From: an uncultured Candidatus Bathyarchaeia archaeon | Lineage (GTDB): Archaea; Thermoproteota; Bathyarchaeia; Bathyarchaeales; Bathycorpusculaceae | NCBI GenBank assembly: GCA_964450845.1 | Contig: CAYVGZ010000018.1 | Location: 1-21,681 of the forward strand | DNA: 21,681 bases | Direction: 5' to 3' | Part shown: positions 13,096-19,971 of the stretch, piece by piece | Layout: each line of letters starts with the position of its first letter | Numbering within the stretch: position 1 is the first letter of the stretch | Notes under the pieces: generated by a model | Seen by the model: the letters and a program-made list of their open reading frames with translations, nothing else | What the model was told of the DNA's origin: nothing | The model's database searches: none | Made by a program: the position numbers and the translations under genes

Positions 13096-13251
13096 AACAG
13101 CTTTTAAGAGCTTTTAAGAATGTTTTGTTAAAAAGCTTCTCCATTAGTTTAAACTATTATCACTTCTGCCAAAAGTGAACATTAAAACTTTTTTAGGTCA
13201 ACTTAATATATTCGGATGGTCTTCTTATGTTCTTCTGAAGGAGGCTTTGGC

Positions 13252-13542
13252 ATGCCAGCAATAGAGATTGGTAGAATTTGTGTGAAATTGGTTGGTCGAG
13301 AGGCTGGAAGAAAATGCGTGATAGTTGACATAATGGACAAAAGCTTCGTAGTAATAACTGGTCCAAAAACGATTACAGGCATAAAGAGACGAAGAACAAA
13401 CATCAACCATATTGAACCACTCCAAGACAAAATAGCCATTACACGAGGAGCATCCGACGAAGAAATCACAGAAGCACTGAAGACATCAGGCAAGATAGAA
13501 GAAATCACGCAAAAAGTTAAACCCGCATTGGCTTCAGCTTAA
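13252..13542 (+). CDS. rpl14e: 50S ribosomal protein L14e (eL14)
   Basis: MPAIEIGRICVK..GREAGRKCVIVDI.D..FV.ITGPK..TGIKRRR.NI.HIEP. The GGAGG RBS supports ATG 13252 over the track start at 13216. Confidence 0.95.
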   Translation: MPAIEIGRICVKLVGREAGRKCVIVDIMDKSFVVITGPKTITGIKRRRTNINHIEPLQDKIAITRGASDEEITEALKTSGKIEEITQKVKPALASA

Positions 13543-13595
13543 ACTCTTATAACTCTAAGCCTTTTTTCATATTTGTAGAGGTGATGCATTCGGCT

Positions 13596-14617
13596 ATGCC
13601 TAGAAGTGTTGCTCCATGGGAAATTAAGCGTAAATTGTTGGTGAAGGCTGAAGATAAAACTGACCCGCGCTATGGACATATACCAGAAGAAAGACCAGGA
13701 GAAGGATACATCCGATACGGTGTAATAAATCTTGACAAGCCAGCTGGTCCGACAAGCCACGAAGTAGCTGCATGGGTTAAACGTATCCTAAATCTGCAGT
13801 GTGTTGGTCACGGCGGGACTCTAGAGGCATAAGCCAGAGAAATCCCAAAGTGACCGGTGTCTTACCTATCACCTTAGAGGAATCTAGGAAAATTGTTCAG
13901 GCTTTACTCTACAGCGGGAAAGAATACGTTTGCGTAATGAAACTTCACGGTGATACAACAGAAAAGAGAGTCAACGAAGCCCTAGAAGAGTTTGAAGACA
14001 CCATTTACCAAAGGCCACCCTTGAGGGCTTCGGTTAAGCGGCAACTGAGAACAAGGAGAATCTATTACATTGACTTTCTCGAAATGGACGGGCGAAACGT
14101 GCTTTTCAAGGTTGGGTGTGAAGGCGGAACATACATACGCAAACTTTGTTATGATATAGGAGAAGTTTTAGGCTGTGGAGCACACATGCAGGAACTCCGC
14201 AGAACCAGAGCAGGGCCTCTTATTGAAAATAGAGACATTGTAACTTTGCATGATGTGGCTTACTGGTTTACAGAATGGCAACAGCAAAAAGGTGATGAAA
14301 TTTTGAGAAAATTCATACAGCCCATGGAAAGGGCTTTGGCTCTAGTTTCAAAGATTTACATAAGAGATTCGGCTGTTGATGCCATATGCCATGGAGCAAA
14401 CCTGACCGCACCAGGCATCTTATCTTTGGAAACTGGAATAAACAGCGGCTCAATGGTGGCAATCCTCAGTTTAAAGGGTGAGGCTGTGGCTTTGGCTAAG
14501 GCTGTGGCTTCTACAGAGGAGATTTTGAACATGGAACATGGAGTTGTTGCCAAAACTGAACGGGTTCTGATGCCAAGAGGAACGTATCCAAAATGTTGGA
14601 AAAGTGGCGAAGCATAA
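13596..14617 (+). CDS. cbf5: H/ACA RNA-guided pseudouridine synthase Cbf5, spliced (exons 13596-13824 and 13842-14617; 334 aa)
   Basis: Joins track ORFs 13581-13832 and 13799-14617. Removing 17 nt restores GHGGTLDPKVTGVLP with the catalytic Asp. NLDKP.GPTSH, GTYIR, LRRT and a C-terminal PUA domain are present. The start could be GTG 13581. Confidence 0.95.
13825..13841 (+). other. 17-nt bulge-helix-bulge mRNA intron in cbf5 (AGGCATAAGCCAGAGAA)
   Basis: Outer helix GGGA/TCCC, 4-bp central helix CTCT/AGAG, 3-nt bulges AG^A and AA^A, intron hairpin GGC-ATAA-GCC. Cutting after the second bulge base gives G|AT = Asp. Confidence 0.92.
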
Positions 14618-15559: not shown

Positions 15560-15668
15560 GCCGGGGTCTCCTAGCCAGGTATGGAGCAAGCCTGGAGACG
15601 TTAGGGCATTAGCGCCTAATAGCTTGTGGCCTCTCGGGGCCGCGTGGGTTCAAATCCCACTCCCGGCG
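15560..15668 (+). tRNA. tRNA-Ser(GGA) with a 23-nt intron at 37/38 (15598-15620)
   Basis: Acceptor GCCGGGG/TCCCGGC with G73; anticodon stem CAAGC/GCTTG; mature loop CT-GGA-GA; long variable arm GGCCT-CTCG-GGGCC; T arm GTGGG-TTCAAAT-CCCAC. Confidence 0.9.
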
Positions 15669-19773: not shown

Positions 19774-19971
19774 CCTAGACCTAATGGACAGAGAACAGAA
19801 ATATAGTCAAAAAGCGGTTGAAGGATGCTATATTCCATTTTTCTGACTTTATTTTGTCCTCATGCATCAAAACGTTCTTCTGTAGCGTCTTTTTCTCCAA
19901 AAAATCGCTGCTAGCTAGTTAACAACTATATTTAGACAGATTTTTGAAAAGCAAGTCAATGTTACAAGCTG

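Follow-up and report, generated by a model that had tools for sequence, protein, structure and literature searches.

The window analysed here, a stretch of 21,681 nt, carries a cbf5 gene whose two parts lie in different reading frames of the same strand (Table 1). The first frame (13581–13832) ends ...GGTLEA* where it runs into a TAA at 13830–13832, inside the predicted intron, and the remainder of cbf5 follows in another frame, the 17 nt of the insert amounting to an offset of 2 nt. The start of exon 1 was set at the ATG at 13596 because full-length relatives begin (MPR...) at that position; an in-frame GTG farther upstream, at 13581, is a less probable start. In silico excision of 13825–13841 joins CTA G|AT CCC (L-D-P), with the split at 13824/13842, and gives a single ORF of 334 codons from the ATG. 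The joined exons read ...GHGGTLDPKVTG..., and the predicted spliced junction is ...GGGACTCTAG joined to ATCCCAAAGTG.... Directly upstream of cbf5, an ORF at 13216–13542 (+) gave no Pfam match at E ≤ 0.001; by eye it resembles ribosomal protein L14e.

Table 1. Features of the split cbf5 locus in window coordinates
Feature	Position	Strand	Description or basis
cbf5 exon 1	13596..13824	+	229 nt; its last base (G) opens the catalytic Asp codon
Predicted 17-nt BHB intron, A GGC AUAA GCC AGAG AA	13825..13841	+	Bulge cleavage and a one-residue gap relative to Cbf5 homologues
cbf5 exon 2	13842..14617	+	776 nt; last two bases of the Asp codon (AT) to the stop codon
Strict hBHBh' recognition motif	13815..13846	+	MFE fold; top-scoring ORF-restoring BHB in the genome scan
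Extended exon–exon helix, GGUCAC 13806–13811 / GUGACC 13850–13855	13806..13855	+	Fold of 13805–13856

Both parts of the gene were recognised as Cbf5. Pfam searches returned DKCLD for exon 1 (E = 9e-20) and the rest of TruB_N, TruB_C_2 and PUA for exon 2. Against the NCBIfam Cbf5 model (NF003280), exon 1 covered positions 2–66 and exon 2 positions 68–321, and exon 2 alone scored 348 bits (cut-off 242). On the Cbf5 of Pyrococcus abyssi (2AUS), exon 1 aligned to residues 7–81 and exon 2 to residues 83–334 (E = 1e-90). The translation of exon 1 ends ...VGHGGTL and that of exon 2 (13844–14617) begins PKVTGVLP; relative to 2AUS and NF003280, the sole residue absent between the two is the catalytic Asp. 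Measured by what defines the family (TIGR00425 / NF003280, with DKCLD, a TruB catalytic domain with GxGGTLDP, and PUA), the match was full-length. No further lesions were seen in the exon translations, and the exons shared 91% amino-acid identity with a sister species. These results bear out the preliminary description, which had named the gene cbf5, placed the intron inside the catalytic Asp codon, and stated that excision removes the in-frame TAA, mends the 2-nt offset and joins G|AT.

The bases at 13815–13846 are GGGA CTCT AGA GGC ATAA GCC AGAG AAA TCCC. The MFE fold of these 32 nt was a strict hBHBh' (−10.8 kcal/mol, 78% of the ensemble), identical in its letters and its pairing to the strict BHB that had been predicted there. 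It comprises an outer helix of 4 bp (GGGA/UCCC), a central helix of 4 bp (CUCU/AGAG), bulges of 3 nt each on opposite strands (AG^A and AA^A), and an inner helix of 3 bp (GGC/GCC) closed by a loop of 4 nt (AUAA), with 11 of 11 pairs being Watson–Crick. On either strand the bulge follows the central helix on its 3' side, which is how a tRNA intron at 37/38 is arranged. A further helix of 6 bp (GGUCAC/GUGACC) stacks outside the BHB across a 3 × 3 internal loop, and the 52-nt context folded at −23.5 kcal/mol (z = −4.8), with 0 of 200 shuffles folding equally well. For cbf5 the published rule is that each bulge is cut behind its second base (PMC2738675), and cuts so placed excise exactly the 17 nt in question.

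A BHB fold by itself proves nothing, because BHB-like folds are common by chance: with G-U pairs permitted, 55 were found in the window versus 45 in shuffles, and for BHBs with 11 Watson–Crick pairs 0.43 were expected per shuffled window versus 2 observed. Chance cannot explain, however, a motif at the sole position that restores both the frame and the catalytic residue, conserved with covariation in relatives. The window contains a second strict Watson–Crick BHB-like motif at 19792–19844 (−), which would define a 38-nt intron. Its helices are AT-rich (AGAA/TTCT and AAAT/ATTT), it lies in the spacer after an Nre gene with no obvious host gene, and it falls within the chance expectation of 0.43 per window.

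The cbf5 loci nearest to that of the window all came from Bathyarchaeia assemblies, and the genome, previously described as probably bathyarchaeal, belongs to this class. We compared 110 Bathyarchaeia cbf5 loci, comprising 96 distinct site sequences. Inserts of 17–39 nt were present at exactly this base in 80 of the 96 distinct sites, and 16 were intronless. The length of 17 nt was the shortest class among the 80, and the 17-nt intron recurred base for base in another species of the genus (L004/L033). Across the 80 sites, 96.6% of the helix cells paired in register, compared with 24–54% when the 3' partner was slid by 1–3 bases; in the central helix, 319 of 320 cells were paired. Compensatory changes were seen at central-helix position 2 (U-A in 54, C-G in 23) and at the first inner-helix pair (G-C in 56, A-U in 20), whereas the bulges were nearly always AGA and AAA. 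Thus structure rather than sequence was conserved, as is required of a BHB intron, with covariation in both the central and the inner helices. The pairs of the outlying GGUCAC/GUGACC helix were retained in 62–80 of the 80 sites. Furthermore, insert lengths were spread over all three frames (31/25/24 by length modulo 3) and an in-frame stop occurred in 73 of 80, indicating that the insert is not translated. In the intron-bearing genes the synonymous positions that form the helices were frozen (GGG ACY CTA G|AT CCC), whereas in the 16 intronless genes the same positions were free, with mostly GAC for Asp.

The distribution within the class fits intron loss. A FastTree phylogeny was built from exon-2 proteins in 101 rows, 19 of them intronless. 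At least 5 changes were needed to account for intron presence, versus 17.7 for shuffled labels, and the intronless rows were nested inside intron-bearing clades. An exact search of JGI metagenome contigs for the spliced junction gave 3 matches, all belonging to one intronless lineage (L115–L117; Ga0315279_10012755, Ga0315285_10000097 and Ga0299915_10095948). These were considered as transcripts and rejected, the three contigs being genomic and up to 84 kb long; within the JGI contigs searched, the junction thus matched only genomic intronless alleles. Their cbf5 is uninterrupted, with intact exon halves (GGGACYCTAG|ATCCC) and GAT for Asp, and the lineage is sister to intron-bearing loci (support 99). 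We read these alleles as a recent, base-exact deletion of the predicted 17–39-nt unit, and this exact loss supports the predicted intron boundaries. A single full-length protein was found among the 120 nearest database matches (P0074; 334 aa, on a 1458-nt JGI contig). Its exon 2 was 92.6% identical to that of the intron-bearing sister species, and it could be either a spliced transcript or an intronless relative.

An intron at this codon is known from other archaea, as the preliminary description had noted. A BHB intron in cbf5 pre-mRNA has been reported in Desulfurococcales and Sulfolobales, including Aeropyrum pernix and Sulfolobus/Saccharolobus, with sizes of 16–44 bp (PMC2738675); the earlier sources, Watanabe 2002 and Yoshinari 2006, are represented here by their citation in Yokobori 2009 (PMC2738675). 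That survey scored Thermoproteales, Cenarchaeum, Nitrosopumilus and Korarchaeum as intron-free in 2009, traced the gain to the ancestor that Desulfurococcales and Sulfolobales share, and described most crenarchaeal cbf5 motifs as relaxed (PMC2738675). Later papers named cbf5 as the only coding-region case (2020; PMC7714728) and held the intron to be limited to a small group of related archaea (2023 review; PMC10485636). The crenarchaeal intron shares with the one in the window the gene, the split site, the codon phase (G|AT) and the cleavage rule (PMC2738675), and in either case an active enzyme requires that the insert be taken out. At 17 nt it also belongs to the published size class. The preliminary description had stressed a very short intron, a point that was overstated: 17 nt is within the published range, and inserts of 11–14 nt occur elsewhere in the phylum. 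The host class differs: Bathyarchaeia were absent from the 2009 survey. The motif differs as well, being a strict hBHBh' with 4 of 4 outer pairs here versus mostly relaxed forms in Crenarchaeota; the samples that we judge likely to be Sulfolobales and Desulfurococcales formed just 2 of the 4 outer pairs. Our literature searches, which mostly excluded subscription journals and so leave absence in print unproven, returned no report of a cbf5 intron in Bathyarchaeia. The intron in the window is thus the known cbf5 intron, in a class for which we found no published report.

Two other known systems resemble it in part. Canonical hBHBh' tRNA introns, such as those at 37/38, have the same motif and presumably the same enzymes (EndA, RtcB and Archease). 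Here, in contrast, the host RNA is a messenger, and the outer helix is coding and constrains the synonymous sites of Gly-Thr-Leu-Asp-Pro. In Haloferax volcanii, HVO_1309 has a BHB intron and its mRNA is a substrate of the splicing endonuclease, as proposed here, but that intron lies in the 5' UTR, whereas the present one interrupts a codon inside the reading frame (PMC7714728).

The distribution extended well beyond Bathyarchaeia. Among 401 genomes sampled from the phylum, the exon-2 open frame was only about 255–290 aa long in many families. We then examined the site in 50 genomes from about 45 further Thermoproteota families. In 38 of these an intron occupied the same G|AY position, a result to be read as a list of family-level presence and not as a frequency, the choice of genomes having leaned to short frames. 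One of the 38 intron-bearing sites (L143) was scored by eye. The inserts were 11–75 nt long and the central helix was always 4/4; the bulges (AG^A, AR^A) and central helix (CYCU/RGRG) were near-identical in all 38. Three samples, whose identities were inferred, matched the published sizes (22 for S. solfataricus, 38 for A. pernix and 21 for D. amylolyticus), which served as a check of the parser. Inserts of 11, 13 and 14 nt were observed at the same site in other families (L131 in G044, L170 in G046 and L151 in G095, respectively), shorter than any published cbf5 intron (16 bp). The 11-nt insert is without an inner helix, its 5' bulge being fused with the hairpin loop.

The presence of the intron in approximately 80% of Bathyarchaeia cbf5 genes and in most of the sampled families of the phylum points to an origin much older than published, with repeated precise losses. 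One alternative concerns origin and not mechanism: the bathyarchaeal intron may have been gained independently of the crenarchaeal one, perhaps more than once, because the exons at this site by coincidence already provide half a BHB. Transposition of BHB introns among tRNA sites has been proposed in Thermoproteales, and the patchy distribution (at least 5 state changes on the Bathyarchaeia Cbf5 tree) and the variation of the loop and inner-helix sequence between classes are compatible with separate gains. On the other hand, the position and phase are identical, and the bulges and central helix are near-identical among the 38 intron-bearing genomes of the 50 sampled. The nesting of intronless genes in intron-bearing clades, with their exon halves decayed, fits loss, and one lineage shows a fresh, precise loss. 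We regard independent gain as rather unlikely. Under the old origin, a bolder version can be considered, to which we attach distinctly less credence: the Asp-codon intron might be ancestral to all Thermoproteota (TACK), have persisted in most families throughout, and be positively maintained instead of just tolerated because it ties production of the H/ACA pseudouridine synthase to the activity of the tRNA-splicing enzymes. If this were true, it would constitute a built-in coupling of two RNA-maturation pathways, and selection for efficient splicing would account for the strictness of the bathyarchaeal motif and for its frozen synonymous sites.

The genome, whose assembly is 93% complete, encodes the enzymes that splicing would need. 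EndA was found at G000:C32:594-1184 (TIGR00324, 87.9 bits; cut-off 59.6) with its N-terminal and catalytic domains, and the RNA ligase RtcB and Archease at C19:18769-20079 and C19:11749-12165, respectively. In the 93%-complete assembly there was no second PF01974, PF02778 or NF007085 match that would indicate a beta subunit or second EndA; a weak second PF01974 match (C1:24306-24452, E = 0.34) was considered as an EndA subunit and proved to belong to an unrelated protein. The nearest PDB relatives of the EndA were 5X89 and 1A79, the enzymes of M. kandleri and M. jannaschii, rather than the crenarchaeal alpha subunits. Crenarchaeal cbf5 introns have been linked to the heterotetrameric (alpha-beta)2 endonuclease, which is able to cut relaxed motifs. 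A single EndA, with no beta subunit found in this assembly, is no real objection here, because a motif as strict as this one should be cleavable by every type of EndA. The combination of a strict BHB in an mRNA with a single detectable EndA gene makes this locus well suited to testing whether the tRNA machinery splices mRNA.

Judging from the motif, the exactly restored protein, the conservation with covariation and the enzymes present, we consider it very probable that 13825–13841 is a real intron of the cbf5 pre-mRNA, of the BHB type that the splicing endonuclease removes. In the mechanism we propose, the cbf5 transcript would fold locally into a strict BHB, half of it exon (GGGACUCUAG... 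and ...AUCCC) and half intron. The EndA of this genome would cut after the second base of each 3-nt bulge, and RtcB, aided by Archease, would ligate the exons to form a GAU codon for the catalytic Asp, putting the 229-nt and 776-nt exons in one 334-codon frame. In the H/ACA pseudouridylation complex Cbf5 is the catalytic subunit, and an active form of it would then come only from the spliced mRNA. We infer the cleavage and ligation steps because an intron at the same codon has been studied experimentally in Sulfolobus and Aeropyrum (cited in PMC2738675 and PMC10485636). cbf5 is single-copy in this genome and Nop10 and Gar1 are single and intact; on these grounds we soundly infer that H/ACA pseudouridylation would depend on EndA and RtcB.

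Were the gene a pseudogene, or the 17 nt an artefact of assembly or sequencing, the locus would yield no functional Cbf5; in line with this, the unspliced frame does stop at TAA 13830–13832 with the remainder in another frame, and gene calls in databases present the locus as truncated. This reading is highly improbable. Both exons are strongly conserved (the 91% identity to the sister species) in a gene that carries no other lesion, and this is the only cbf5 of a 93%-complete genome in which Nop10 and Gar1 are intact. An insert at the same base occurs in 80 distinct sequences with compensatory changes; because independent assemblies share it, an assembly artefact in particular is very unlikely. 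Equally improbable is retention of the insert in the mRNA, whether the ribosome hops across the hairpin (bypassing) or shifts frame there, or two polypeptides are made that assemble: a stable hairpin with an early stop superficially resembles a bypassing take-off context, and GTG 13850–13852 (V of PKVTG) is taken as a start by gene callers, but the conserved feature is the BHB geometry (3-nt bulges 4 bp apart) and not take-off or landing codons, insert lengths of 17–39 nt fall in all frames, two separate polypeptides would be without the catalytic Asp, and in Crenarchaeota the homologous intron at this site is taken out of the RNA itself (PMC2738675; PMC10485636).

The splicing reading has consequences for annotation. 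Of the 120 nearest database proteins, 119 were exon-2-only calls of 255–260 aa starting VTGVLP or MTGVLP, in accord with the earlier expectation that pipelines would miscall the gene. In Bathyarchaeia and many other Thermoproteota, the essential gene cbf5 is routinely annotated as a truncated 255-aa protein without the catalytic residue, which distorts completeness estimates, orthologue sets and metabolic and RNA-modification inferences. The intron is also far more widely distributed than the published view, which places its origin in the ancestor of Desulfurococcales and Sulfolobales and confines it to a small group (PMC2738675; PMC10485636). It is this distribution, wider than in print, together with the consequences for annotation, that makes the intron of interest, and not the present window alone.

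A genome-wide scan for ORF-restoring BHBs yielded 436 candidates under loose rules, mostly spurious; under tightened rules, which do not provide a census, cbf5 ranked first of 10. The second in the genome-wide scan was a 54-nt BHB-like insert at G000:C34:14970-15023 (+); without it, two open frames, one of 151 and one of 252 codons, would become continuous. Also split is pcm, the gene of a protein-L-isoaspartate O-methyltransferase (G000:C13:20309-20982; locus L174:1452-1516). Its two frames match positions 4–62 and 60–208 of Pfam PCMT and are separated by an insert of about 32 nt. In its fold (a relaxed BHB) the central helix is CGCC/GGCG, the bulges are ACA and AAA, the inner stem has 8 bp and the outer helix is weak. 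This insert is a second candidate mRNA intron in the genome; it was missed by the tightened scan owing to its weak outer helix.

In the same genome, ARAGORN in intron mode called introns in 11 of 48 tRNA genes. Together with pcm, the tRNA-Ser gene among them that lies in the window is a candidate further substrate of the splicing enzymes, which speaks for the intron reading of cbf5. The window gave no tRNA with default ARAGORN or with Rfam at the gathering threshold. ARAGORN intron mode placed a tRNA-Ser(GGA) with an intron of about 23 nt at 15560–15668 (+), approximately 1 kb downstream of cbf5, and this gene was recovered in Rfam E-value mode at 37.3 bits.

Inteins of about 530 aa (Intein_splicing and LAGLIDADG_3) were observed between TruB_N and TruB_C_2 in two other cbf5 genes, one from the same order as the window's genome (G032, L173:307-2922 (+)) and one from the same family (G052, L172:703-3066 (−)). 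The G032 gene has the intein without the intron, and the G052 gene combines the intein with a 22-nt BHB intron at the Asp codon, so that both RNA splicing and protein splicing would be needed.
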